NCBI GenBank assembly: GCA_963815195.1
Contig: CAWFGE010000015.1
Coordinates: 448,001 to 512,000 of the forward strand
Direction of reading: 5' to 3'
DNA: 64,000 bases
From: an uncultured Planctomycetaceae bacterium
Lineage (GTDB): Bacteria > Planctomycetota > Planctomycetia > Planctomycetales > Planctomycetaceae
Shown: one piece after another, positions 6,855 to 27,012 of the stretch
How the letters are laid out: every line of letters starts with the position of its first letter
Numbering within the stretch: position 1 is the first letter of the stretch
The notes under the pieces: model-generated
The model's input: the letters and a program-made list of their open reading frames with translations, nothing else
What the model was told of the DNA's origin: nothing
The model's database searches: none
Made by a program: the position numbers and the translations under genes

Positions 6855-6932
6855 GTAGGGCAGGCTCCCGCAGGCTCCTGCCTGCCGATTTGTTGCGATT
6901 CTTAAAAGAAGACAGGCGGGAGCCTGCCCTAC
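6855..6932. repeat. GTAG-type REP inverted pair, family E
   Basis: GTAGGGCAGGCTCCCGC ... GCGGGAGCCTGCCCTAC. Confidence 0.75.
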
Positions 6933-6937
6933 TTTTT

Positions 6938-8468
6938 ATGCCAGTTTCCCCACTCATCTCCATCGAACACATCACCAAGCGGTTCCCCGGCGTGACCGCT
7001 TTGGAGGATGTGAGTTTTGATGTGTTGCCCGGCGAACTCCATGCGGTGGTGGGGGAGAATGGGGCGGGGAAGAGTACGCTCATGAAGATTCTCTCCGGGG
7101 TGCTTTCGGCTTCGGAGGGGCGGGTTTTGCTCAAGGGGCGGCCGGCGGAGTTTCAGAGCACCCGCGATGCCGAGGCCGCGGGCGTGAGCATTATTCATCA
7201 GGAACTCAATCTTGTTGAGGAACTCTCGGTCGCGGCGAATATCTTTCTGGGCCGGGAACGCACGGGCCGCTGGGGACTGCTCGACGACCGCACGATGCAG
7301 CGGGAGGCGGCGGCGATTTTTGAACAATTGGACTGCTCCATTTCTCCGGCCCAGTTGGTGCGGGAACTGCGGGTGGGCGATCAGCAGTTGGTGGAAATCG
7401 CCAAGGCCCTTTCGATCAAAGCCGAGATTTTGATCATGGATGAGCCGACCAGCGCCCTCACCGAAGGCGAAGCCCGGCGGCTGTTTCGCGTGATCGATCG
7501 GCTGCGAAAGCAGGGCGTGACCATCCTCTCCATCTCCCACAAAATGGAGGAAGTATTTCGGCTGTCCGACCGCATCACCGTGCTGCGCGACGGCCGGCTG
7601 GTCGGCACGTTTCGAAACGGCCCAAACCACTCCCCGCGAGATCACCCATCAAATGGTCGGCCGGGAAATCGAGGAAGTCCACCTGGGCAAAGGCCGACGT
7701 CCGGGCGAGTGTCTGTTGGACGTTCAGAACCTCTCGCTGCCCTGGCCGGGCCACGCCCGGAAGTGGAGGCTCCGGGACATCAACTTTTCGCTCAGGTCTG
7801 GCGAGGTGTTGGGCATCGCCGGGCTGATGGGCGCGGGCCGGACGGAGCTGTTGGAATGTCTGTTCGGCGTCAGCGTGGTCCCGCCCGAGGGCCAGATCGT
7901 CATCGAGGAACAGCCGGCGCGGTTTCGTCATCCCGCCGACGCCATGAAAGCCGGCATCGCCTTGGTGACGGAAGACCGCAAACGCCAGGGGTTGTTCGGC
8001 CATCTTTCCGTGCGGGAGAACATCACCCTCTGCACGCTGCCGGAGGCGCTGCGAGGCGGGCTGGTTTCCGGGAGAGCCGAACGCCTTATGACGGAGGAAT
8101 CCATCGATCTGTTGGGCATCAAAACCGCGGGGCCGGAGTCTCCGATCACCAGCCTTAGCGGCGGCAATCAGCAGAAGTGCATCATGGCCCGCTGGCTGCG
8201 CACGCGGCCCAAGATCCTGCTGTTGGACGATCCGACGCGGGGCATCGATGTGGGGGCGAAAGCGGAGCTTTATAAAATCATCGACCGCCTCTGCCGGGAG
8301 GGATTAGGAATCCTCGTCACGTCGAGCGAGCTGCCCGAGTTATTGACGCTCTCTGACCGGATTCTCGTGCTCTGTGAAGGCCGGTTGACGGGGGAATTTG
8401 GGCGAAGCGAATTCCGCGAGCAAACCATTATGGAAGCCGCGACGAACCGCGAAAACCTGGCTGTTTGA
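6938..8468 (+). CDS. Sugar ABC transporter ATP-binding protein, RbsA/MglA type (frameshift near 7612)
   Basis: GENGAGKST, ILIMDEPT, GLMGAGRTE, LSGGNQQK, LLLDDPTRGIDVGAK; two ABC domains in ORFs 6890..8158 and 7653..8468. Confidence 0.92.
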
Positions 8469-11343: not shown

Positions 11344-12342
11344 TCACACCTCGAGCACGATTTTGCCGTCGAGGGTGCCGGCTTTGTTTAAGGTGTTGTC
11401 CTCTTGCAGTTGATGGGCGTCGGCGGCTTGGTCCAGCGGGAAGACTTTGCCGATGTGCGGTTTCCATTCGCCGTTCTCGGCGAGGATGTTGAGGGTTGAA
11501 GCGGATTCCCTCTGCTCTTCGGGGCTGGCATTGAACATCGCAAAGCCCAACATCCGGAGGTCGTTGACGTAAAACGGTCCCACGGGAAATTCGGGCCGGG
11601 CATCGCGGCCGGCCATCAGCACGATGCGCCCGCGTTTCGCCATCAAACCCACCGTGCGGTCCAAGGTCGGCTCGCGCTGGGTCTCAAACCAGACGTTGAC
11701 GCCCCCGCGGGGTTCCGCGAAATTGCGGATGTCCTCGTCCAGCGTGTCGGAGTGATAATTCAAGACCAGATCCGCCCCCAGGCGTTCGCAGGCGGATTTT
11801 TTCTGATCGCTGCCCACGGTGGCGATGACGGAGGCGCCCACGGATTTCGCCAACTGCACGACCGACGACCCCACGCCGCCCGTGCCGCCGTTGACGAACA
11901 CCACTTCGCCGCCTTTGAGCCCGGCATGCAGAAACAATCCCAAATGAGCCGTGATTCCCACCAAGGCCCCGGCGACGGCTTCGTTGTCGGATTGGCCTTC
12001 GGGAATCCGGTACAGCCATTTTTCATCGATCGCGGCGTATTCCGCGAACGTCCCCTGCCGGCCGAACAGCCCCTGATTGCTGCCCCACACGCGGTCGCCC
12101 GCATTGAGCACCGAAACCTCCGCCCCGCACTTCTCCACCACGCCCGCGACATCGCAGCCGGGGATATAAGGGTTCGGCAAATCGGCTTTGATGGCTCCCG
12201 CGCGGATGTACGTGTCGATGGGATTCACCGCCACCGCCCGCACCTTGACCAGAACCTCGGTCGGCCCCGGCTCCGGCTCCGGCAAGTCCCCCATCTGAAT
12301 TACATCCGGCGAACCGGTCTTGGAAATGTATGCGGCTTTCAT
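11344..12342 (-). CDS. NADPH:quinone reductase (zeta-crystallin/MDR family)
   Basis: VNPIDTYIRAG, GCDVAGVV, GGTGGVGS, GKIVL. Confidence 0.92.
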   Translation of the reverse strand: MKAAYISKTGSPDVIQMGDLPEPEPGPTEVLVKVRAVAVNPIDTYIRAGAIKADLPNPYIPGCDVAGVVEKCGAEVSVLNAGDRVWGSNQGLFGRQGTFAEYAAIDEKWLYRIPEGQSDNEAVAGALVGITAHLGLFLHAGLKGGEVVFVNGGTGGVGSSVVQLAKSVGASVIATVGSDQKKSACERLGADLVLNYHSDTLDEDIRNFAEPRGGVNVWFETQREPTLDRTVGLMAKRGRIVLMAGRDARPEFPVGPFYVNDLRMLGFAMFNASPEEQRESASTLNILAENGEWKPHIGKVFPLDQAADAHQLQEDNTLNKAGTLDGKIVLEV

Positions 12343-13112
12343 AGAGGTTCCTCCGGTGATAAATTCGAATCGTCGCGTTTCGCGGTTCCACATAACCCGG
12401 GGGATTACACCCCGCTCGCCTTAGTTTTTGTCTCCAGATCTCGCGCAGGATCGTTTCGCAGTAGCCGTCAGCGTTCGTTAGAGGGCTCCGAAACAGAGCG
12501 ATTCATTCGATCGCTCATCTCAAGACAAATGATTCGGCCGCTTTGTCTCAGTTGGTGAGAATTGCGGAAGCAATAATGTCTGATGAGCAGAGATCCCCAC
12601 CTGCCGCATCAAGTGAATTGTGTTCGCGGCGAGTTTCTTCTCCCTCCGGCCACTTGGGAGCTGACCATTGTATTGAAGCGGTCTGTTTGCCGTTGCGGTT
12701 CAAACACATGGGACGCGGCAAACTTCGCGTGGTTTGCCACGGGATCGGCGCGGCTCACTTCAAACTCGATCCATAACCGGCAGAATGCATGAGACGGCTT
12801 TTTGTCAAGGGCTTCTCCCAAGCATCCGGAAACACCGATTTAACCGCTGTCCAAAACAAAGTCAACACATACGGTCGGCCGCGGGGATGTGGATTGTTTT
12901 GATGCTTCGACCATCCAAGGTGATTTCCACTCGGAACCGTTAACTCGTGTGGACGAAGACGCACGGTTTCGCCCGAAACCTCAAGGCGACCGCTTGGCGG
13001 TTCCCGCCGGAATTGGTATTTTTAGACCGCGCGAGCGGGGTGGTTTTCGGATACAATACCGTGGAAAGATACCTTATTACTCCTTCGGGATAGGAGGCCG
13101 TGTTACGAAACC

Positions 13113-14735
13113 ATGTCTGTTCATTCCAAAATCCTCGAGAATCCAGCCCGTGCCGAAGGACCCGATCCGTTTGCTTGGACCTATTTCACGGAATATCTCG
13201 CCGCAAACAGAGAAAACGCCGCCTTGCTGCGCGAAATGGGAGAAACGATCAATCACTTTCGCCACGAAGCCCCGGAGATTCTGCTGCGGAAGTGTATGGA
13301 CGGCCGGACGAACACCACGGATCACAAAGGGTGCCCGCCAACAACTGTGGAAAACCAGCGGAGCGATGGCAACAAAGCGCTCGTCGATCCCAACAATACG
13401 GATTTCTGGCTGCCCATCCGAATCAAGATGGTTCGCGCGGCTTGCCGCACTCCCGGCAAGCCGGCGATTTTCATTACGGCCGCTCATCGATCGAAGCTCG
13501 CCGGATCGTGTGCGGCGTATGCCAAACCTCACGACCGTAAGGAGAACACGGACCGGCGTGCGCTCCAGGGAGTGATCGATCAGGCATTGGACGTGGAGAA
13601 TGCGCTATTCGGCACGCCGGACGCCGACCGGCTCTACTGTCTGGCTGCGATCACCAACACCGACATCGGCGCCATGGAACTGCACGTCCCAAGCGGCGAG
13701 CAACTGATCGACGCAGAGGAAGTGATGGCCCGCAATCGTTGGATGGCCCCGGGGCAGGTGTTCTCGCGAGAGTTTCTCGATCTTTCCATAAACGATCCCG
13801 ACGCGCACGAATCGATTCAGGGCCGGACATTGCGTTCGCTATTGTCGGGTCCGCCCGCCGAAGCGGTGGCGAACCAGCGTGTCAAGATCGCGATGGAGGC
13901 GTACCTGCTCAAGCAGTTCAACATGGTCTGCTCCAAAGGAGAGGATTTGCAGACGCTCGTAAGCCCATCGGCAGCGGAAGCCATCGGCCAGGCGCTCGAC
14001 CGGGCCGAGAGACTCCCTTCTTCGCTCGCGGGGTTCGTCGCTTATCTGATTGCCTGGAACCTCACCTATGCCCTTGAGCAAACGCGTCAACTGCTCCAAT
14101 TGGAGGAAAGTGACCCCGATGCGCTGGACCACCGCGTGGGTCACGATGAGCGGCTCATCGGCTACGGAAACGGGTTCGAAGCCGCGACCAAGCACAACAA
14201 CATGCTTCTGGTAAAGCCGGGCAGCGGCAACGACCGCCAAGCCATCAGCGTGGCCAGAAACGTCATTGAGGGCGTCGCCGAACGACGCCATCTCCCCAGA
14301 CGCCCTTTAGTCCATCTGAACATCGAGCTGGATGCCCCCATCACCACCTGGCAGCAACTGACCACCGTGCTCGCTCGCATGAACACCAAGATGGCAGTGA
14401 TTCGGAGCGTCTTCGGTGCGGACTCCCATGTGCGTGTGATGACGACATACTCATACTCTCATGGCGTGCAGGATGTCAATATTTCCAAGCAATTCTTTCC
14501 GCTCAACCCCAACCCCGCTGACCGGTTGATCGTTTGCCCTGAAAATCTGAGCGAAATCGACTCGCCTGATAACTTCTCCGCCGAGCGGTTACGGGAATTG
14601 GAGCATCGCTACACCAACTTGTCGGCGAATTCGGAGCCTGACGACCTCGCCGCCAAGCAGTCGGACTTTTCCATCGACCCATCGGACTATACCACTGACG
14701 AGTCAGACCTTGCCGCGGAGCAGTCGGACGGCTGA
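13113..14735 (+). CDS. Divergent CsoSCA-type (carboxysomal-like) beta-carbonic anhydrase
   Basis: KCMDGR (CxDxR), AHRSKLAGSCAAY (H...C zinc ligands), TNTDIGAMELHVP (compare CsoSCA DTDTDAIRVHVP), GHDERLIGYGNGFE (compare GHAERFIGVGxGF). Confidence 0.75.
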   Translation: MSVHSKILENPARAEGPDPFAWTYFTEYLAANRENAALLREMGETINHFRHEAPEILLRKCMDGRTNTTDHKGCPPTTVENQRSDGNKALVDPNNTDFWLPIRIKMVRAACRTPGKPAIFITAAHRSKLAGSCAAYAKPHDRKENTDRRALQGVIDQALDVENALFGTPDADRLYCLAAITNTDIGAMELHVPSGEQLIDAEEVMARNRWMAPGQVFSREFLDLSINDPDAHESIQGRTLRSLLSGPPAEAVANQRVKIAMEAYLLKQFNMVCSKGEDLQTLVSPSAAEAIGQALDRAERLPSSLAGFVAYLIAWNLTYALEQTRQLLQLEESDPDALDHRVGHDERLIGYGNGFEAATKHNNMLLVKPGSGNDRQAISVARNVIEGVAERRHLPRRPLVHLNIELDAPITTWQQLTTVLARMNTKMAVIRSVFGADSHVRVMTTYSYSHGVQDVNISKQFFPLNPNPADRLIVCPENLSEIDSPDNFSAERLRELEHRYTNLSANSEPDDLAAKQSDFSIDPSDYTTDESDLAAEQSDG

Positions 14736-14805
14736 TCGCCGGCGACGGGCCGTTTCACTCACTACCGCCCCCCGATTTTTCCCGCCAGGTGGTTCCTGCC
14801 GGGCG

Positions 14806-16287
14806 TCAATCGCTGCCGAGGCCGAGTGTTGGACTTTGACTTCTTAGCGAGCTTTCTTGTTTCGGCGTACTCACTTGAGGCGTGGACTCCGTCTTCGGAA
14901 TTTCTCCGTTGCGCAGACGCAACAGTCCCAATGCCGCGTGGTATCTTGAAGTGACTCCCGGTTGTGGAAACACGCCCCCGCCAAGTATCAAGGCAATAAG
15001 TATCAACACGGCGATTCTTTCGCGGTAGCGCGCCCGAAGAGAAATGGATGCAGTATGGTGTGTTCCCGTAAAGACGCGAAAATACGCGGACAAAATCGCG
15101 ATTCCGTTTAATGCCATGGCAACGACGACCGCCATACCAGTAAGCGGATAAACGGTCACCGCCCCTTCGATCAGCAATTCCGTTCCCACAAAACCCACCG
15201 TGCCGGGAAAGCCGATCGAAGCCAGCCCTGTTACGAGAAACAAGGCGGCCAGCGTCGGAGTGTGTTCGTAGAGTCCATGATACTTGTTTAACGACACGCG
15301 GCCGGTTCGCGATTCCACGCAGCGAAGAGTCAGGCCGAATCCCGCCAGAGACACCCCGACCGAGATCCACACACACAAAGCGCCCGTCAACCCGATCGGA
15401 GTGACCAATTCCAGTCCGACAAGGACCAGCGAGGAATTGCTGAGAAACAGGTAGCAAAAGAACCGCCTCGCATCGTGCTGTACGAGTGCCATGCCGCCTG
15501 CATAAACCGCCGTGAAGAGAGACGCGAGCGCGATACTTTGGAGAGCCCAGGCGGGGGCAATCGGCAGCACCAGCCGTATCACGGCGTACGCGCCGGTGAT
15601 GGGCGTGACAAACAGCAGAGCCGTTCCGAAGGTGGCTTTTTCAAACAGATCCGTCATCCAGCAATGCAGCGGGACAATGCCGCTCCGCAAGAGGCCGGCC
15701 GTGGTCAACATCGCGCCAGCGATGAGCCGAATCCCGGAATTGGGAGACGTCCGATCTACCAAAAACTGGCCGACCAGAAGCAATGCGACAAATAGGCCCA
15801 TGTGAACGGAATAAACTCTCGTCGAACGATGTCGACCACGGATGACAACAAACGGCGGAATGGTGGCGGCGGACAAAAGGACAACGAGCCCCCAAGGATC
15901 CCGGCAACTTAAAGTCGCAAGCAAGATCGCCTCTGACGTCAACGTCCACCCAAACGAAAAACGACTCACCTTGGTCCGCAACGTGGCCAGCACCGTCATT
16001 AAAAACAGAAGCGCGGCAAGCGGCAGCAGCGGCGCGCTCAGTTCGTCAACGACAAACACATCTCTGTGAAAAAGCGTACTGAGCACGTCCCAGTGATCGT
16101 GCGCTTCGAACGCGTGGACGGTGCCAAAGTCGATCCATTCTCCGACCGCAAAGACCAACGTAAGCGTGCAAATGACCACGCAGGTCGTCCATGCAACTTC
16201 GCGGTTCCGCAGAAACCCCACACCCATTGCACCAAGCAAGGGAGTTAAGACGGAGAGTTCCAGCCAGGGCAAGTGGAGTTCAGGCAT
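14806..16287 (-). CDS. NuoM/MrpD-like membrane subunit (third gene of the DAB operon)
   Basis: Many TM helices; [36 protein letters not shown] coupling to dabB. Confidence 0.85.
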
Positions 16288-17675
16288 CAGACGAATTCCT
16301 CTAACGATCCGGTTTGCAAGTCCACATTGTCAACTTCACCGGACTCTCCGCCCGACAAGAGATCCGTCCAGCGGCGTTCCATACGATCGCACCAGTGGAA
16401 GACTGCAATAAACGGGCGGACAATGTATTCATTCAAGATTGCGTCGAGGAACCCGCGTTCCATCGCGAATCGATATAACCAGGTACGGCCGATGTGCTGA
16501 ACGGCGGGTTCCCGAGGTTCCTGCTCGTTTTCAGAGTGATGCGCACCGATGGCGTTTTCAATTGTGTGGTAGTCGTGCAAAAGCGAGGGGGCTCGCAGTA
16601 ATTGCAACGTCCGCAGACAGGCATGTCCGATTATGTGGATCAGCGGGATGTAGCGCAGACCGAAGCCGATCTCAGCCACAATCAGCCCCACCTGTGTGAG
16701 CGACGCGAACGCCAACGCACACTTGACGTCCGATTGGACTCGCGCCGCGAGAGTTCCAAAAACCGCCGAAACCAGTCCCAGGACCACGACCGCGATGCTA
16801 AACAGTAAAGACGCTTCCAGGAGCGGGCTGACTCGCAAGAGCAGAAACGCCCCCAGATGGACGGATAGGGCTCCATAAAACACGGCGCTCGATGGTGTAG
16901 GGCCTTCCATGGCGCGGGGCAGCCAACCGCTGAAAGGAATCAAGGCGGACTTGCCGGCGACGGCGATCAAGAGCAACAGGCCGACGAATAGCGCGTGGGA
17001 TTGGGAGATGGTGGCGTGACTGTCGGGCCAAGGTCCGGACCGCATCAGACCGTCAAAGTCGCCGGCACCGGTCAAATGATGCAGCGTCAGGGCCGCAATC
17101 AAAAACGCCGCATCACTAATGCGGTAAACCGCCCAGACCCGTTGGCCGTTGAGAACGGGGTTTCGCCGTTCATGAAAATACGCAACCAGCAAAGCTGACG
17201 ACAACCCGACGAGTTCCCAACCGAAAAACAATGTTTCGATTGTTCCCGCGAGGGAGGACACGACCATACCGAGGAGAAATACAGCATAAAACACAAAGTA
17301 GCGTCCGTAGCCCGGTTCGCGATGCAGGTATCGGCTGGTGAAAGCGCCGATCGTTCCGGTCAGAACAAATGTCAGAACGACGAAAGGCACCGACAATCGG
17401 TCAAAAATGAACTTGAGATGAAAGTGAAAGTTTTGTTCGTGAATGACGACCCAGTCGCCGATTTCTATAGGCACATATCGGATGCCGAGCCCCAGCATCA
17501 TAATCAGAATCGCGACCGATGCGGTGAGTCCGACGACCACCGCCCCTTGGGTTAAGTGAGCCAACGCGCGCTCCCCCAGCGGACGTCCCAAAAGGGCCGA
17601 CAAACCGAACACCGCCAGCAATGCACTCGGGCTTGCGACAATACAGATTCCCAAAATAGTAAATACTGTTAGCAA
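16287..17675 (-). CDS. dabB: DabB, NuoL/ND5-like proton-conducting membrane subunit of a DIC transporter
   Basis: [59 protein letters not shown]; lies immediately downstream of DUF2309. Confidence 0.85.
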
Positions 17676-17771
17676 TTTCGTAACTTTCGCGATTTGGGTT
17701 GTGGCCAGGCAGGGCTTGGTGCGAGAAACTCGTTGTTGTTCGGGCGGGCTGTCATTGTCTCTCTCGGCAGT

Positions 17772-20700
17772 TCACCCTGTCCGAGCGACCGTTTCCACGG
17801 CGGGAGTCGATTTGGCCGGCGCCAACGGGAGTTTCCGGATTGAGCAAAATCCAAGGTGGTCGCGCCAGCCGCGATACCAATCGAGGGACGACTCCTCGGC
17901 GGGCAACTCATCCGTCTCCGGTTGATAGGGAATGAAATCTCCTCGGACATAACGATGAACCTGTGTTTTCCCGGCGTCAAACACCGCCAGTTGAACCCAT
18001 TCCCCATTGACCAGTTGGGCAATGGCCGGGTTGTCGTCGATAATCCGCTGCATGGCGTCGAGGGATGTTTCGACGACGAAAAGCAACCGCACCGGTTCGT
18101 GGATTTCGACCATTTGCCAGGGCAAGCCAGGACGAAGGTCGCTGGCCGCACCATCCATAACCCCCAAGAGAGATGTGATGTTGTGCGGAAGTTTGGTGCC
18201 GCAACCGTATCCGGTCGGGTCCACGAACGAGAAATAGTATTCCAGATTGATTCCGGCACAGACGGGGATGACGGCTTGCAGCATCCGTTCCAGAATGGAA
18301 CTGCGTTCGTCGTCCTGAGCGGGATCATACGAAGTCAAAAACGCCCGGCGGTCAAGGAACAACCCGCGGCTCCAATCTCGACGACCGACGAAACATAACG
18401 CATTGGTGGCATGACCGTATTCGGGCCGCGTTTGGGACAAGTCTTCGGCGCGTCCTTCCACGTGGCGAAGCGCCGATTCGACCGAAATCGACAATTCCGC
18501 CGACTCGAATCGCCGGCAGCGTTCGTGAGCGCTGCGTTTGCGCGCCTCGTTAATCTCCGCCTTGGCGATTTCGAAGAGAGCGCGATGTCGAATGGAAACC
18601 CGGTCGACGTCGTACCACGTGACGCTGTCGTCACAGGTGTTATGGTAGCAACCGACAAACAACGTCTCATCCGAAATATTGATCCCGCGATCGGTCAGAA
18701 GCCGGCGGACACGCAAGTCGTTGGCCATTTGGGCGAAGGCGCGCGCGTTTGGTCCGCCGCGGCCGCCGCCGCAGGCCCCGCAATCGTGTGCGGCTTCATG
18801 CGGGTTGTTGAGACTGGCGGAACCGTGACCGCAAATCACAACGAGCCGCGAAAGCAATTCCACGTTTGCCAGTCCGAGTGCCCGGAGCCCCCCTTCAACG
18901 ATGGCCGCCATCTCGTCGATTGTGTAGCCGATGTGTCCGTCCGTTGGTCCGGGGTCGGCTTCGACCCTTTCGATCCGCAATTCCGTCACGGGCGATTGCA
19001 CGATCCTGCCGAACAGCCTTCGGATTTGTGCCGCGGTCCGCGGGAAGAGCACGCGCGCCACCAACGGAAACGCCGCCAATGACCCGAGCAGGCCGGCCGC
19101 CAGTCCGCCCAAAAAGGTCCGCGTGCCTCGGTGAGCCTGTTTCGTGGCCTGCCCGAGTCGCCGCCGGGCCTCCGCCCGCCGGCGCCCCGATTCCGCCTGG
19201 GTGCAAAGCGGCTCTTCCGTCACGTAATGTTGGGGCCTGATGCTCACCGGGCAAAGTGGTTTGAAGTGAGCATCCGTTGCCCCGCGGTAATACATCGCCA
19301 CACCAAAAAAACCGGCGATGCCAAAGGTTTCGCACTCGGGATCAATTTCCTCAAGGTGGCGGCGGAAGGATTCCTCCCGCTCATCGATGCAGCACGTCAC
19401 TTGAAATCGTGGAACGGAACGGCGGGTGTCGTCCTCGCTTGCCCGTTTTCGTTTGGAATGGGCAATCACCGCGTCGAGCGTCTCGTTTCTGTATTTCTGC
19501 TCGAATGCAAGGTGAAATACTCTTCGGCGTTCGAGTCCTGGGAAGTCGTCGATCTCCCGAATCAGTGCCGCCCACTGCTGCCTCGTTAAATGTTGCAGGT
19601 CTTCAGGTTTCCAACCCCGCACTTGGGCAAGTTGGAACACGATGAATGTTCGTCGATTTAATCCGTTCGCATCACCCTGGGGCAACCGCTGGATCGCCAC
19701 CTCACGAACGCCTCGCAGTTCCCCTCGGAATCCCAACGACTCTCGCGCCACATCGGCGATCGCCAAGCGTTCCAGGATCAGCCGAACGGCAAGGTACTCG
19801 GCGAGACTGCCAGGCGGGGCCGTACGAGGCATCCATTCCGCATTGGTCTCCATTTGCCAGACCATTCCGGCCCAACCGCGCAGCGCGAGCAGCGATCGTT
19901 CGACAAAACGATCCCGTTCATCGTCGGCCACCCCCAGGAGGGAAAGTGACTCTCCAATCGACTCCAGCGGACCGATCTCCGAATCCAGCAGTCGCCGCGC
20001 TTCATTCTTCAAGCCGGACAACCAAGGGGTCGGTGAAGCAAACGACACGCGATGGAGATTCAAGAACGCCCGGTAGATGCCCAAATCCCGGTTCGGAAGT
20101 TCCCAACTTGCAAAGCCCTGATCCAGAAAAGCCGAGCAGAAGCGAATCAACTGTTCATTCACCAGGACATTCACGTCCACTCCCGTAACTGCGAGCAATA
20201 GCTCGCGGTGTTGGAGCAACGGTCTTGGCCCGGTTGAGTGGACGGCGTCCGCTTCTACGGACCGCACGCCATTTTGACACACCCTCCAGAGAAAGTTCAA
20301 CGTGAACGCTTCCCAAGTCCTTTCGGTCCACGATTCCATTGACCTCCGATTGAATTGCTGTAAGACATCCGACAAAACCCGCTTTGCCGAATTCTCTCGA
20401 GAAGGATCACTGCTCCGAAGATCGCGCATCACCCAATGGCTGGTATCAGCAATTATGCGCTTGCGGACGGCGGGGGGGGCATCGTTCCGAAATCGCCTCA
20501 AAGCATCGGTTTCAGCGATCCCCCATCGTAATTCGGCGGAAGGTCCGGACCGCAGGGGAAACTGCAACATCGCCAGTCGGAGATCAAATCGCGTGCCAAA
20601 AATTGCAACGAGACGGTCCGCTTCCTGACCAAGGTCATCCAGCAAGACCGATTCCAAGTCTTTCAACCGGATGCGGCCTTGTTCAAATTTCTGACGATAT

Positions 20701-20965
20701 GCTTCTTCCGGCAGATACGCGTTACAAGAAAACAGCACCCCCCCGCTTTGACCCCCGCATCAAAGGGCAGGTCCTCGAACGAGTGCAACGTGTTGTGATG
20801 AACGAAGACCTCAATCGGCCCCTGGGCCGGGAGAAAATGAGCTGCGTGTTCAATGACATGCTGAATGTGACGGAGGTCACAATGGTCTTCTGCGCCGTGT
20901 GGAGGCGACAAACCTTGGCCCGACTTGCCTTCGACAAATGTATTTGTCGCATTGTTCATTTGCAT
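17772..20965 (-). CDS. dabA: DabA, DUF2309/UPF0753 beta-CA-like subunit of a DIC transporter (frameshift in the G7 tract at 20738-20744)
   Basis: [18 protein letters not shown]-terminus (ORF 20663..20980); [75 protein letters not shown] 8 nt before ATG 20965. Confidence 0.92.
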
Positions 20966-21137
20966 TACAGATGTCCCCAAAAATGATTCTTTCGTCGCAA
21001 CTCAATCAAGCTGTTGAGTTGTCAAGCTGCCTGGGATCAAGAGGGATGCAAGATCGTCTCTGTCCGCAGACAATGCGTGTAGCCCCCGATGACGCGTTCA
21101 TGATCGGGTGTTACAGAGAACTGGGGCGCTCAGGCCG

Positions 21138-21476
21138 CTAAACGGGTGGCCCGCGAGAGAGCCAGGCTTCCGATCGACGAATCGCACCGCCAAGCGAACG
21201 ACCAACGGTTCCTGGAGAATCTTGCTTGGAGAGAACGAAAGGGACTTTGCCGATTAACGCGTCGCCGACCAGACAATCCCAGAGCGGGGCCGGATGATCA
21301 TCCTCGACCTCTTCTGCCGAATCGGTGCACTGCTGGGGCGGTTCGGCCTTCCCGAAAGGACCAAAGTTCACACGATTGCTGGAGACGTACAAAGAGAACG
21401 TGGCACACACAATCAGCAGTGTTACGCAGTTCGAGAGCGAAAAAACTGGAAGCCCAGAGAGGATAGATTGCCGCAT
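21138..21476 (-). CDS. Small ORF with hydrophobic N-terminus and C-terminal RGPP; candidate arrest leader peptide of the dab operon
   Basis: 112 aa; CVTLLIVCATFSLYV hydrophobic segment; ends WLSRGPPV-stop; co-oriented, about 170 nt upstream of dabA. Confidence 0.55.
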   Translation of the reverse strand: MRQSILSGLPVFSLSNCVTLLIVCATFSLYVSSNRVNFGPFGKAEPPQQCTDSAEEVEDDHPAPLWDCLVGDALIGKVPFVLSKQDSPGTVGRSLGGAIRRSEAWLSRGPPV

Positions 21477-22021
21477 GTTCCGGTCCTATTGGCACGACCG
21501 TGCCAAAACTACTTTAGGCCAATTTCACACGATTTGCATCCAACTTCCACCAAATCCGAAATACACATAATGGAATACGACTGCAGCTTCGTTTCATTCG
21601 GAAAATCGGTCAATGTGGGAAACACCCCAGGGGAGGAAATGGACGTTCCATGCCTTTCTGGGACTTGCTTTCAAACAAAGACCTTCCTCTACGAAAGAAG
21701 TGTTTGCTGAGTGTCGTCCCGGAGCTTATTATACTCACACGGGGATCTGGCGCATAGAATCCGTCCCGATTTCGTTCGCGAATCGGGAAAATCCCATGGA
21801 TGCTGCCCGTGACTTCCATTCGTCCTGGAAATGCGGGCGGACTCAATTGCGGCCGCGGTGCGAATCGGCGATGCTGTGTGACTGTCTGTTGTGCAACGCC
21901 CTCGCTTGGTGCGCGCATCGCCCGGAGCGGCGGCTTCCAGCCGACGAGTTTGGCCCGCCGCGACCGATGCGGCCGCGACACGGCTTCATCAAAGTCACCG
22001 CTGTTTGAAGGGAATTTCCGC

Positions 22022-23354
22022 ATGCATTCATCGCCCAGCACCAAACGCTTGCTGCTGTTCGCCATCGGAGTTGTGCTTTCGGTGGGATCCGTAGCGATTG
22101 CCGCCGAGCGGCCGAATATTCTGATCCTTTTCACCGATGACCAGGGCTATGCGGATCTCGGCTGCTTTGGAAACCAGAAGAACAAGACGCCTCGGCTCGA
22201 CCAGTTGGCCAAGGAAGGCACGCGGTTCACTTCGTTTTATGCCCAGACCGTGTGCGGGCCGTCCCGGTCGGCTTTGCTCACCGGGCGACATCCGATCCGC
22301 AGCCGCGGGTGGAGCATGCCCGCGTCCGAGATCACCTTCGCGGAACTCGCGCGGAGCAGGTTATCAAACCGCTTGCTTCGGCAAATGGGATGTCTCGAAC
22401 CGCCGGGCGATTGTCGAGCGGATGCCGAACGCCCAAGGGTTCGATGACTACTTCGGCACGCTGGGCGCCAACGACAGCGGGCAGGTCGCCTTTCACGAGA
22501 ACAATGAAAAAGCGGGTTCCACCAGCGACATGGGGAGCCTCACGACGCTTTACACGAACAAGGCGATCTCGTATCTCAAGGAAAAACGCGATCCGAAAAA
22601 GCCGTTCGTGCTGTACGTGGCCCATAATATGATGCACACGATCATCGGGGCCTCTAAGCGGTTCCGGGGCACGTCCAAAGGCGACCTTTACGGCGATGTG
22701 GTCGAGGAGTTCGACTACGAAACCGGCCGACTGCTCGATGTGCTCGACGAGTTGGGGCTACGGGAAAACACGCTCGTAATCTACACCAGCGACAACGGCC
22801 CCTGGAACCAGCCCAAATACACCGACCGCAAAAAGGGGCATCCCGAAGGCTCCATTTTCTGGGGCGAGGCGGGGCCGTTGCGGAACGGCAAAGGCTCTTG
22901 TTACGAGGGCGGCTACCGCCTGCCTTGCCTCGTGCGCTGGCCGGGCAAGGTCCCCGCGGGACGCGTTTCCGATGGCGTTTTCGCCACGATCGATTTCCTG
23001 CCCACGTTCGCGGCGCTCTGCGGTTTTGAAGTGCCGAAGGACCGCCGGATCGACGGCATCGATCAGACCAAACTGCTCTTCGGCGAAAGCGAAACGGGGA
23101 GAGAGGATTTCTATTTTCACAACGCCGGCGTTCGCCAGGGCAAGTGGAAGTATCTGAAGCCCGACGCCCATTTCTTCGGCTACGCGATCGAGGACGACCG
23201 CAAGAAACAGGATGAGCTGTACGACCTCGAAGCCGACGTCGGCGAGAAGACGAATCTCGCGGCCAAATTTCCCGAAAAGGTCGCCGAGCTCAAGGCCTTG
23301 ATGCGGTCGATCGAAGGCAAGGACGACCCCAAGATGCCGCAGAATATTCGCTGA
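22022..23354 (+). CDS. Formylglycine-dependent sulfatase (frameshift near 22350)
   Basis: Signal peptide; RPNILILFTDDQG, CGPSRSALLTG, GKW, YTSDNGP, YEGG, LYDLEAD. Confidence 0.92.
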
Positions 23355-23399: not shown

Positions 23400-25565
23400 T
23401 CAATCCTCATTGAGTTCGGCGTCACACTCTTCGCAGCGCCGATCTCCGGGCGGATTCATGTGCCCGCAAGCGGGGCAGGTCTTGAGGTGATAGCCCGCGG
23501 CGGCTTCGGCGGCGGAAACATCGTGGTCGTCGCTGCCGGGCGGTTCGGTCTCTTGGATGTAGGTCTTGCCCCGGTAGGTTTTGGCGATATAGATAAACAC
23601 CACGGCGGTCGCGAACATCGTCCCCGTGAAGAACCAATAATAAGACGCCCCCGGCAATTTGCTCGTGCCGTCGTCATTTTGGATGACTTTATTCACCAGC
23701 GACGTAAACAAGTTCCCTACAGAAACGGACAGCAAGTATAACGACATGATCAGCGACTTCATCCGCGGCGGGGCCTGCGTGTAGGAAAACTCCAGGCAGG
23801 TGATCGAGACCATGATCTCCGACGAGGTCAAAATGATATAGGCCAGAATCTGCCAGAGAATCGTCGGCTTGTGGCCCGTCGCCGCGACGTTGGGCCAAAC
23901 CTCTTCTGCGTAAGCATCGGCATGGGGCGGCATCTCGCCTTCCGCGTTCACGCGAATCCCGCCCAGGCTGACGGCATCCGCACCGGAGCCCTTTAAGATT
24001 CGAATCGTCACATACTCCGCCTTGACGGGCGAAAAGCGAAGCTTCTGAAATTCGTTCTGCGGCGCGAGCGTGAACTTGCCCACGCTTTTCCCCGGCTGAT
24101 TGCGGTCGGTGGAGACGAGCACTTCCACTTCGCGGGCGTAGTATTGTTCCGGTTTGGCATGCTTGAAACCGTCCTCCTTTTCCCGCTCTTCAAAATACGT
24201 CGTCAAATCCGAGGCGGGGTTGATCGCGACGGAAGAAATCTCCCAAGCTTTGCGTTCCCGCAATCGCAACGTGATCGACTGCGGAAGAAACGTTTTCTTC
24301 TGCTTGCCTTCCTGTTCCTTTTCCAGCCCCTCGTAATCCTCCTTCTTGCTCGACACCCAGCCGCGGCCGGTGACTTCGCCCTCTGGATTGACATTGTCCT
24401 CATCGAGCAGATTGTTCGCCGAGAGCAATTCGGGATCAGCGTGCGATGTGACTTGGTCTTTGAGGATCTGCCCGCCCGTGATGTTTTCTTCAATCAAAGC
24501 CGAGACACCAAACCCCGCCACCATGACGAAAAAGCCGATCGAAACTTTTCGCAACGGCGTGAGCGGAAACACGCGATGGATCGCCGGGTAGATCACATAG
24601 GAAAAGACCGGGATCAGCGCCAGGACGAAAATCGGGTTGATCGCCTGCATTTGCGACGAGAGCAATTCCACGCCCATCAAATGCCGGTCCATCGACTCGG
24701 CCTGGCCGACCCATTTGGAGGTCGTCTGATCGAATAACGACCAGAACATGGCGACGAAGATATAGATGCGGACCAGATTCAAAAGCGCCTGGCGTCCCTC
24801 GGGAGTGAAGGTCTCGCGCAGATAAGTCTGGAACATATCGGTCCATAAACGAACGCGAGCCGATATCGAATCAGGCGGGTCTCCTTCGCCGGAGAAGGAC
24901 TCGCGCACGAAACCCTCGCTCGCCGCCGGGATGTGGACGAACTTGTTCCGTCCCAGCCAAAAGACCCACGTGGCCAACAGCATCAATCCGCCCGGCACGC
25001 CGAACGCCACGTGCGGCCCGTACCATTGCAGCAGTTTGGGCGTCATCAGGCTGCTGGCAAACGCGCCCAGATTGATCGAAAAATAAAACCAGCTAAAGAT
25101 CTTGGGAAGAAGGTGTTCGTTGAGTTTGCCAAACTGGTCGCCCACGTGCGCGGAGACGCAGGGCTTGATGCCTCCGGAGCCGATGGCAATCAGCGTCAAG
25201 CCGATCGTCAGCCCGACCCGCGTTTCATCCAAAGCCAGCGCCAAGTGCCCCAAGCAATACACGATCGACAGGCTCAGAATCGTGAGATATTTCCCGAACA
25301 GCCAATCCGAAACGATCGCGCCCAGGATGGGGAAGAAATACGCAGACGCCACGAACAAATGCACGTAGGCCGTCGCCGTGGTCTCGTTCATCACGTCCGC
25401 CGTGCCGTCCGCCGCGATAAGATATTTTGTCATAAAGACAAATAAAATGGCCCGCATCCCGTAAAAGCTGAACCGCTCGGCGGCTTCGTTGCCGACGATG
25501 AACGGGATGCCCGGCGGCATGGTGCTGATGGCTTGCGGGGACGTGCGGTAGGCGTGCTCGGACAT
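23400..25565 (-). CDS. POT/PTR proton-dependent oligopeptide transporter with inserted discoidin-like domain and C-terminal zinc ribbon
   Basis: NEAAERFSFYGM, GGIKP..SAHVGDQF, FYFSINLGA, FDQ, EFSYTQAP; about 200 aa insert; CPAC...CEEC tail. Confidence 0.92.
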   Translation of the reverse strand: MSEHAYRTSPQAISTMPPGIPFIVGNEAAERFSFYGMRAILFVFMTKYLIAADGTADVMNETTATAYVHLFVASAYFFPILGAIVSDWLFGKYLTILSLSIVYCLGHLALALDETRVGLTIGLTLIAIGSGGIKPCVSAHVGDQFGKLNEHLLPKIFSWFYFSINLGAFASSLMTPKLLQWYGPHVAFGVPGGLMLLATWVFWLGRNKFVHIPAASEGFVRESFSGEGDPPDSISARVRLWTDMFQTYLRETFTPEGRQALLNLVRIYIFVAMFWSLFDQTTSKWVGQAESMDRHLMGVELLSSQMQAINPIFVLALIPVFSYVIYPAIHRVFPLTPLRKVSIGFFVMVAGFGVSALIEENITGGQILKDQVTSHADPELLSANNLLDEDNVNPEGEVTGRGWVSSKKEDYEGLEKEQEGKQKKTFLPQSITLRLRERKAWEISSVAINPASDLTTYFEEREKEDGFKHAKPEQYYAREVEVLVSTDRNQPGKSVGKFTLAPQNEFQKLRFSPVKAEYVTIRILKGSGADAVSLGGIRVNAEGEMPPHADAYAEEVWPNVAATGHKPTILWQILAYIILTSSEIMVSITCLEFSYTQAPPRMKSLIMSLYLLSVSVGNLFTSLVNKVIQNDDGTSKLPGASYYWFFTGTMFATAVVFIYIAKTYRGKTYIQETEPPGSDDHDVSAAEAAAGYHLKTCPACGHMNPPGDRRCEECDAELNED

Positions 25566-26179: not shown

Positions 26180-26195
26180 TCCTCTTATTGGACCG

Positions 26196-26775
26196 TCACT
26201 TCCACCATTCCGGGGCGGCGAAAAGGTTGGCGACGGCGATCCGAAATTCCGAGACGATCGGCCCGCCTTCCAAGGTTTGCCAATCGTCGAACTGTTTCGG
26301 CGCGCGGTTCTTGCCGTGGACGTGGCAGCGTTTTTCCGCGGGATCGATGACCCACACGAGTTCCACGCCGCGCTCGAGGTAGGCCAACACGCGCCTCGGC
26401 CATTTGCCGGCGGCGGTCGTTGGTGGAGGCGATTTCGCAGACCAACCGGGGCACGCGGTGGGAGTACACTTCATCCACCGGGCCGAAACCCTCTCCGCTC
26501 GCAAAATAACTCATCGCCGGGCTGAGCACGGAATCCGGATCCGTCTGGACCAAGACGCCGACATCAAAACAGGCCACGCCTTCGGGCGGGAGTCCGGGTT
26601 GATAGGTCGCCGCCATCGTTTTGGAGAGGTTCAACACGATGTTGCCGTGCATTTCATCGGGCGGTTGGAGCGTGATAATCCGCCCCGCGAAAAGCTCCGT
26701 CCAGCGGCCGCCGTCGGGCAGGTCGTATTTGAGACGGGCGAATTCCTCCGCCGTCACCAAGGCTTCATCAATCAT
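26196..26775 (-). CDS. Uma2 family PD-(D/E)xK endonuclease (frameshift near 26397)
   Basis: TAEEF, ELFAGRI, DPDSVLSP, LVCEIAS, then YLERGVELVWVIDP in the next frame. Confidence 0.8.
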
Positions 26776-27012
26776 CGAATCACGTTCCCCGGAAAGGCGC
26801 GCCACACTTCGACGGAAATCCGCGCGCCTCCACTATATCGCAATCCCGCGAACCCGTGCCACCGAAAGTTGGGGAGCCGGAGACCGAGGAACGTGGAGAA
26901 GATCGAAACCGGCGCGAAAACCCTCTTGCGTGACGCCAATTGAGCCAATCTAATAGGGCATAGGACGCAGCCTGCTTTTGATGAAATTCCCCAAACTCCC
27001 GAAGGTGCAACA

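Follow-up and report, generated by a model that had tools for sequence, protein, structure and literature searches.

A predicted three-subunit DAB pump operon with a candidate RGPP arrest-peptide leader beside a CsoSCA2-type carbonic anhydrase gene in a planctomycete genome

We analysed a stretch of 64,000 nucleotides (nt; hereafter the window, G000:C15:448001-512000) from the genome of an uncultured Planctomycetaceae bacterium (G000; 8.87 Mb, 25 contigs, 94.6% complete), in which a predicted DAB-type pump for inorganic carbon is encoded next to a carbonic anhydrase (CA). The pump genes are located on the minus strand and comprise dabA, which is split by a frame change (5' part at 20663..20980, main part at 17772..20738), dabB (16287..17675) and a gene for a NuoM-like subunit (14806..16287). 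The CA gene on the plus strand (13113..14735) converges on this operon with 70 nt between the stops, and its neighbours are the dab operon and a quinone oxidoreductase gene. A short open reading frame (ORF) ending in RGPP precedes the operon on the minus strand (21138..21476). This layout had been proposed from the sequence alone (hereafter the original prediction); indeed, we found the ORFs on the strands given there and could validate the families of dabA, dabB and the nuoM-like gene, which form one operon.

The main part of dabA matches positions 41-747 of PF10070, and the 5' part, which lies in the other frame, matches positions 1-56. All four residues of the DabA zinc site (C, D, H, C) align with those of DabA2 in 9RD0. 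The dabB gene encodes a shortened NuoL-like subunit of 462 aa (PF00361 and PF00662), in which E154 and K242 are invariant across 61 homologues, and it adjoins the PF10070 gene, as is required of a DAB/MpsAB pump. The start of the third gene overlaps the dabB stop. Its product is a full-size, antiporter-like NuoM/COG1008-like subunit (493 aa, PF00361), which retains the glutamate of transmembrane segment (TM) 5 (E119) and carries an invariant arginine (R201) at the position of the TM7 lysine; the TM8 lysine was looked for in this protein and not found. Based on the closest NCBIfam and PDB relatives, the 493-aa protein is nearest to NuoM (/ND4) and the 462-aa protein to NuoL, with scores below the equivalog cut-offs.

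The DabA zinc site and the NuoL-like DabB are shared with DAB1, DAB2 and MpsAB as described in passages of the respective papers (10.1101/476713; 10.64898/2026.05.01.722082), but DabA is longer here, with a full length of about 1,050 aa. According to the same passages, the DabC subunit of DAB1 has half the size of NuoM, belongs to no Pfam family and lacks a proton path, whereas the third subunit in the window is a PF00361 protein with some of the charged TM residues kept. Since this subunit has 493 aa and best matches NuoM/ND4, we rejected an identity as DAB1 (DabABC). No structure of a NuoM-containing three-subunit DAB was among the PDB matches. The gene order, dabA upstream of a nuoL homologue and then a NuoM-like gene, corresponds to clade C of COG3002 (YbcC/DabA), for which passages of Klimchuk et al. 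2017 (PMC5700660) describe operons with a NuoL homologue, NuoM (COG1008) and SulP; these passages name neither a CA nor a leader, and our assignment to the clade is by gene order.

For a survey of dab loci, we combined 95 fetched loci, chosen for a long DabA or for membership of a CA-bearing or same-genus genome, with the window and the loci L005 and L006 (the latter in genome G437, in agreement with the contig coordinates). In these 98 loci, some of which come from the same genome, which differ in span and of which four lie outside the family, the trio of dabA, dabB and the nuoM-like gene was present 86 times; sulP was located near dab in 43, and in the window genome it lies elsewhere. DabA itself was detected in 109 of 151 family genomes and in 62 of 401 phylum genomes. 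In five loci (L108, L109, L110, L111, L113), a long dabA paralogue stands without dabB or a nuoM-like gene beside it as far as the fetched span reaches, and the genomes concerned also encode the trio.

As assembled, dabA is frameshifted. The frame changes at a run of seven G (20738..20744, minus strand), where the window is one base short compared with four relatives, and the rest of dabA is free of stops. The break is likely to be an assembly error, because 4 of 27 conserved genes tested, dabA not counted, are split in the assembly and because a short-read contig carries two extra bases at the frameshift of the neighbouring sulfatase gene, thereby contradicting the assembly. At the G run itself the X1 contigs end just short of the break and leave it uncovered, which, like the frameshift as such, is a point against a working pump operon. 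Apparent frameshift splits also occur in the window in an ABC ATPase gene (6890-8468), the sulfatase gene (21800-23354) and one more gene (26185-26805); the assembly is rich in indels.

The CA gene encodes a protein of 540 aa, which has no hydrophobic signal at its N-terminus. Its likeness to CsoSCA, already claimed in the original prediction, is not visible to Pfam, NCBIfam or single-sequence PDB searches, none of which gave a match, and PF20686 was touched by only one of 12 close homologues, at E 0.065. A homologue search returned 13 proteins and a profile search 87 cluster representatives (39 at E ≤ 1e-30); the profile matches grade into proteins of about 350 aa, most of which, as far as scanned, match PF20686 (CsoSCA_cat). 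A 46-row profile matched CsoSCA in the PDB at E 2e-8, covering the catalytic domain and the GHxE motif of the C-domain. The AlphaFold model (pLDDT 90.5) pointed in the same direction: the top five Foldseek matches were CsoSCA (E 4.5e-12 to 2.6e-11), and comparison with 2FGY gave a Z of 23.8 and an rmsd of 3.0, with 351 residues aligned over model residues 15-467, while the next beta-CA after CsoSCA reached a Z of 16 and a CS2 hydrolase a Z of 10. The predicted ligand residues are C61-D63-R65, H125 and C133, together with H344 in the C-domain. Across the 46 rows of the family alignment, C61, D63 and H125 are conserved in 38 and R65 and C133 in 39, the remainder being almost all fragment gaps, and H344 is conserved in all 46.

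Model residue 15 aligns to residue 121 of 2FGY, and the first ligand is located at residue 61. The protein starts about 100 residues later than 2FGY and would therefore be without the carboxysomal N-terminus (Rubisco-binding, hook). It shares with carboxysomal CsoSCA the two-domain fold, a single Cys-His-Cys zinc site and the Asp-Arg dyad; we rejected this identity because of the missing long N-terminal domain, the missing cso operon and the lack of RuBisCO in the genome. From the modelled fold, the ligands, the short N-terminus and the locus, we conclude that the protein is a predicted CsoSCA2-type or 'non-cso' orphan, i.e. a non-carboxysomal, clade-D-like beta-CA. An Atlas look-up, which is a weak lead, agrees with this identity. 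Passages of two studies (PMC9164163; PMC11086599) describe such orphans as widespread in autotrophs and heterotrophs, unstudied and maybe ancestral to CsoSCA, and as often located near NADH or NiFe hydrogenase genes or permeases. As in these descriptions, the protein has the two-domain CsoSCA fold with one zinc site and a short N-terminus and is encoded outside a cso operon. In contrast to them, the subfamily found here is more divergent (about 470-600 aa, mostly below Pfam cut-offs), includes members from Candidatus (Ca.) Peribacteria and forms two separate lineages within the planctomycete family. In quick trees, on which all our CA phylogeny is based, the clade of the window's CA groups with the Peribacteria sequences, apart from the second planctomycete clade, and an approximately unbiased (AU) test rejected a single planctomycete clade, with the group chosen after seeing the quick tree.

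Some members of the wider CA family differ in architecture. N-terminal twin-arginine-like or hydrophobic extensions, suggesting export or anchoring, were seen in P0015, P0017, P0021, P0024 and L009:9782-11473, some of which belong to Ca. Peribacteria. In the L009 copy, His and Cys are separated by a short spacing, as in canonical beta-CAs, and its gene is convergent with genes for enolase and pyruvate kinase. In the CsoSCA-like P0072, P0085 and P0099, the C-domain motif precedes the catalytic CxDxR, an apparent circular permutation. In the window's own gene, a 24-nt sequence occurs twice with 88% identity at a distance of 63 nt (14643-14729), within the low-confidence acidic tail. The closest homologue (L093:8174-11668, genome G462) adjoins genes which, on inspection, we take to encode an aquaporin-like protein, an arsenate-reductase-like protein and a methyltransferase resembling MddA.

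The ORF in front of the dab operon encodes 112 aa with a hydrophobic N-terminal segment (17-residue mean hydropathy 2.0, judged from hydropathy without a signal-peptide predictor), an acidic linker and the end RGPPV, and its stop is located 157 nt ahead of the first dabA start. In the window genome, sulP has a paralogue of this ORF (42% over 62 aa) in front of it, and so does sulP in G462. We applied a leader filter (60-140 aa, hydrophobic start, R[AG]PP at most six residues from the stop), which matched only twice in the 8.9-Mb genome, before dabA and before sulP. Of the 98 loci, 95 have 800 nt available upstream; in 10 of these, which represent ten genera, such a leader is located at most 450 nt ahead of the dabA match, whereas ten control motifs and the opposite strand gave none in the same loci. 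All nine ORFs that passed the filter in 1.51 Mb from 105 relatives' loci precede dabA. The sequences of the ten leaders are not obviously alignable. Twelve other loci have a sigma-54-type site before dabA, with no overlap with the leader loci (expected about one; not significant).

Known RAPP/RGPP arrest peptides (ApdA, ApdP, CruR; PMC12992588) likewise are small ORFs with an N-terminal hydrophobic segment, a C-terminal RGPP and a co-oriented downstream gene. At least 15 RAPP upstream-ORF rows in the source data of PMC12992588 precede SulP. The candidate leader differs from the known families in having no sequence similarity to them and in its downstream gene, dabA; among the matches listed from that source, no row names DabA/DUF2309, and an unseen entry is possible. 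We consider the RGPP ORF a likely arrest-peptide leader for inorganic-carbon uptake genes, as judged from its motif and position. Several observations weigh against this view. Genome-wide, control motifs gave counts of 3, 1 and 0 compared with 2 for RxPP, and the two leaders are paralogues; since the RxPP count is no higher than that of the controls, only the position of the leader is informative. Moreover, such a leader is missing from 85 of the 95 dabA loci, the distance between leader and dabA (at least about 150 nt) is large for a direct coupling of translation, and the spacer folds no better than shuffled sequences (z 0.28). No RxPP leader was found in 32 loci of mostly shorter DabA, which is uninformative, since only 1.5 kb of flank was covered and dabA may be preceded by dabB in these loci.

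Just upstream of the leader is a perfect 8-bp inverted repeat, TTGGCACG-GT-CGTGCCAA (21489..21506). It was rejected as a sigma-54 site: one part resembles a -24 box, but the spacing to -12 is one base short and the site is not conserved. The repeat was not seen before the other 11 leaders. In L051 (5723-6880) a transposase-like gene stands between a beta-CA gene and the RAPP leader-dabA unit. An Rfam scan of 12000-22500 gave no match at E ≤ 0.1, promoter and terminator scans remained at chance level, and no terminator was listed between the convergent stops of the CA and nuoM-like genes. One soil-metagenome run (62% of sampled words) may be the source sample of the window genome; none of the sequencing runs listed was an RNA run carrying the window sequence. 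Apart from the carbon-related genes, the window encodes a POT-family peptide transporter (23400-25565) with a big inserted extracytoplasmic domain (weak F5/8-type C) and a C-terminal zinc ribbon.

The original prediction had called for a genome-wide check for RuBisCO and for shell genes. No RuBisCO and no phosphoribulokinase (PRK) were found in the whole genome, and the positive controls of both searches were detected; Pfam searches for CsoS2 and CsoSCA gave no match, with their positive controls also silent. A bacterial microcompartment (BMC) locus does exist: the only BMC locus of the genome, on contig C23, has two BMC genes, which by inspection stand among aldolase-, aldehyde dehydrogenase-, acetate kinase-, PduL- and EutN-like genes. 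We take this locus to be the planctomycete sugar microcompartment. Phosphoenolpyruvate carboxylase was not found in the genome, and a protein with a PYC_OADA domain is encoded. Besides the CsoSCA-fold protein, the genome encodes an ordinary beta-CA, SulP, and SbtA with a PII-like gene, a kinase and a porin. The latter form a single run on contig C12 (L068:3893-10909), with an SbtA-family transporter, a PII-like protein, a PAS kinase, a sigma-54 regulator and an O/P porin; a pair of PAS kinase and sigma-54 regulator as in L068 also flanks dabA in nine relatives' loci, suggesting a conserved inorganic-carbon regulator. The PII-like gene, the RGPP paralogue and sulP are co-oriented in one cluster on contig C13 (L067:7796-8514) and in G462 (L117:1082-2117), and sulP of the window genome (L067) is split by a frameshift.

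Next, we asked how far the five genes belong together. A narrow CA profile (A1) was positive in only 1 of 401 phylum genomes, i.e. the window genome itself. The CA was found in 12 of 301 family genomes and adjoins dab in three. It is convergent with dab in the window and divergent upstream of dabA in L005 and L006, where a PAS kinase and a sigma-54 regulator follow the CA and no RGPP ORF is present. Because the CA lies beside dab in only 3 of 12 genomes, its orientation varies and the RGPP ORF is absent from L005 and L006, we conclude that the five genes do not constitute a conserved module; of the synteny that the original prediction proposed to look for, the adjacency of CA and dab is seen again in two other genomes and the five-gene set is not. 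Further observations weigh against a link between CA and pump. In the other nine CA-bearing genomes, CA and dabA are located on different contigs, several of the CA contigs ending near the CA gene with one side unseen. Both flanks of the 85% identical CA copy in the same-genus genome G462 could be read and contain no dab, and its dab locus has an ordinary beta-CA. The Peribacteria relatives of the CA have no dab nearby, with DabA absent in both of the two tested.

Ordinary beta-CAs adjoin dab far more often in the family than the CsoSCA2-type CA does. With an intact CxDxR they are located divergently upstream of dabA in nine loci, one of them at a distance of about 11 kb, and one locus has such a gene behind the trio in the same orientation; six more loci contain only degenerate PF00484 genes downstream. 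One of 18 tblastn matches, a beta-CA match near dab in L202, was dropped as a fragment without a Pfam match. In L055, L145, L156, L157, L161, L162, L164, L165 and L173, PF00484 genes without the arginine of the Asp-Arg dyad follow the dab trio or sulP in the same orientation, sometimes as tandem pairs; they are possibly regulatory pseudo-enzymes. The CsoSCA2-type gene sits twice, in L005 and L006, in the slot that a beta-CA usually occupies at dab in this family.

A free cytosolic CA was expected in the original prediction to short-circuit the pump, from which compartmentalisation, opposite regulation or a different function was deduced. A compartment is not needed, because DABs and free CAs are known together in heterotrophs and their co-expression was tolerated in tests. 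The discovery paper on DABs (10.1101/476713) already noted their occurrence in heterotrophs lacking RuBisCO. Parts of the further literature on DAB and CA (PMC10880623, PMC8567241, 10.1101/2022.06.21.497102 among the sources) report that CA and MpsAB seldom coexist, yet list species with both; describe co-expression of DAB and CA as not deleterious in E. coli or C. necator, with heavy leakage modelled only when both are extreme; and, in a review, call the coexistence of DAB and cytosolic CA a conundrum, for which differential expression is suggested. In the B. subtilis operon ndhF-mpsB(ybcC)-canC, either system alone suffices for growth in air, according to passages of 10.64898/2026.09.08.750065. 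The operon resembles our locus in that a heterotroph has DAB and beta-CA genes side by side, and differs in that an ordinary beta-CA is part of a two-subunit operon, while here a CsoSCA-fold CA forms a separate convergent unit.

Taken together, we consider it probable that the locus holds a DAB pump operon, an adjacent free and redundant CsoSCA2-type CA and an RGPP arrest leader serving the pump. By analogy to the known arrangement, pump and CA are likely to act as back-up bicarbonate suppliers in a heterotroph, and for a genome in which a DAB pump and a CsoSCA-fold CA occur and no RuBisCO was found, bicarbonate supply, as already suggested in the original prediction, is indeed the simplest use. 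CO2 from respiration or diffusion would enter the buried beta-CA site of DabA and be hydrated in one direction, driven by ion flow through DabB, as in characterised DABs; the NuoM-like protein would probably be a third subunit next to DabB, with a structural or a partly conducting role, in a position similar to that of DabC in DAB1. The CA would equilibrate CO2 and HCO3- in the cytosol, and both routes may supply biotin carboxylases, carbamoyl-phosphate synthesis and purine synthesis. Since both routes would run towards bicarbonate in a respiring heterotroph, futile cycling should remain low as long as they are not both strongly expressed. The CA may have been acquired late and seems to come and go within the gene neighbourhood that the family devotes to inorganic carbon (dab trio, sulP, PII-like gene, beta-CA, PAS kinase and sigma-54 regulator, porin). 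The weakest step concerns the leader, whose hydrophobic N-terminus would engage the membrane-insertion machinery while RGPP stalls the ribosome, so that the duration of the stall would set the expression of the downstream transporter.

This reading has to be weighed against others. That CA and dab are chance neighbours, with the CA a horizontally acquired orphan in a meaningless position and only dab operon and leader forming a unit, appears rather unlikely to us. The two are separate, convergent transcription units, in G462 the place at dab is taken by an ordinary beta-CA and the CsoSCA2-type gene is located elsewhere, the second planctomycete CA clade (seven genomes, about 32% identical) is never located beside dab in the DNA available, and the window's clade groups with Peribacteria sequences; but within the close clade three of five genomes show the adjacency, in two arrangements and twice in the beta-CA slot, and three adjacencies in multi-megabase genomes are improbable as coincidences unless they derive from one ancestral linkage, which would itself need explanation. 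We regard as unlikely a conditional switch, by which the CA would serve when CO2 is plentiful and energy is short and DAB at low CO2, with leader and convergent transcription preventing futile cycling. Such a switch would agree with the separate promoters expected from the convergent or divergent orientation in all three CA-dab loci, with the non-overlap (not significant) of leaders and sigma-54 sites before dabA and with the differential expression proposed in the review mentioned above, but several loci carry PF00484 genes behind the trio in the same orientation, one of these genes with its CxDxR intact, and such loci, like the B. subtilis operon as described in the passages cited, imply that co-transcription is tolerated.

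A function of the CsoSCA-fold protein as a hydrolase of carbonyl sulfide (COS), CS2 or another substrate than CO2, or as a CO2/bicarbonate sensor, seems distinctly improbable. Identity to CsoSCA is only about 15%, Pfam is silent, the protein is about 150 residues longer than its compact homologues, a CS2 hydrolase is among the fold matches and beta-CA folds also hydrolyse COS and CS2, all of which counts against a CA; the genome already encodes an ordinary beta-CA, and two-component genes are frequent among the CA neighbours. On the other side, the best structural and profile matches are CsoSCA across both domains, and the full ligand set and the Asp-Arg dyad are conserved in a protein that occupies the beta-CA slot beside dab. 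The proposal of the original prediction, by which parts of a CO2-concentrating mechanism were combined, with the CA compartmentalised, e.g. in the microcompartment of this genome, and fed by DAB, has become very improbable: the CsoSCA fold and the shell genes speak for it, but neither RuBisCO nor PRK was found, the CA has no carboxysomal N-terminus, the BMC genes are of a kind we take, from inspection, for the sugar type, and the CA belongs to a class of orphans that, in the passages cited, is widespread outside carboxysomes and may be ancestral to CsoSCA. Scarcely more credible is a dab operon that is a true pseudogene or phase-variable at the G run, with the adjacent CA as substitute; the one base missing from a homopolymer towards the 5' end of dabA would fit, but the split conserved genes, the short-read contig contradicting the sulfatase frameshift and the lack of other stops in dabA argue for an error of the assembly.

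The carbon-concentrating side of the locus, i.e. DABs in heterotrophs, orphan CsoSCA2 and DAB beside CA, is ordinary in that all of it is in print. The newer point is the recurring short leader before the pump in ten genera, which, as its motif suggests, would exert control by ribosome stalling. In a literature search made mostly without subscription journals, we found no paper on DAB or CA in planctomycetes, on CsoSCA2 in Patescibacteria or on an arrest peptide ahead of dab genes. A wider proposal, which we put forward tentatively and consider possible rather than probable, is that Planctomycetaceae control clade-C DAB and SulP by a dedicated family of RAPP/RGPP arrest leaders, as an alternative to sigma-54 two-component control. 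The leader would then be a nascent-peptide sensor of CO2/bicarbonate, pH or membrane energisation, the NuoM-like third subunit would be a full ion conductor, and the system would be backed by a deep CsoSCA-fold lineage shared with Patescibacteria.

For the family, these results provide a genomic context for the unstudied CsoSCA2-type lineage, and because the gene sits twice in the slot of an ordinary beta-CA, a real CA function of this lineage is supported; its enzymes may resemble the ancestor of the carboxysomal CA. They also point to a frequent DAB type with three predicted subunits, one of them a full NuoM-like protein, which is distinct from DAB1. If true, the leader before dabA would extend RAPP/RGPP regulation to the uptake of inorganic carbon.

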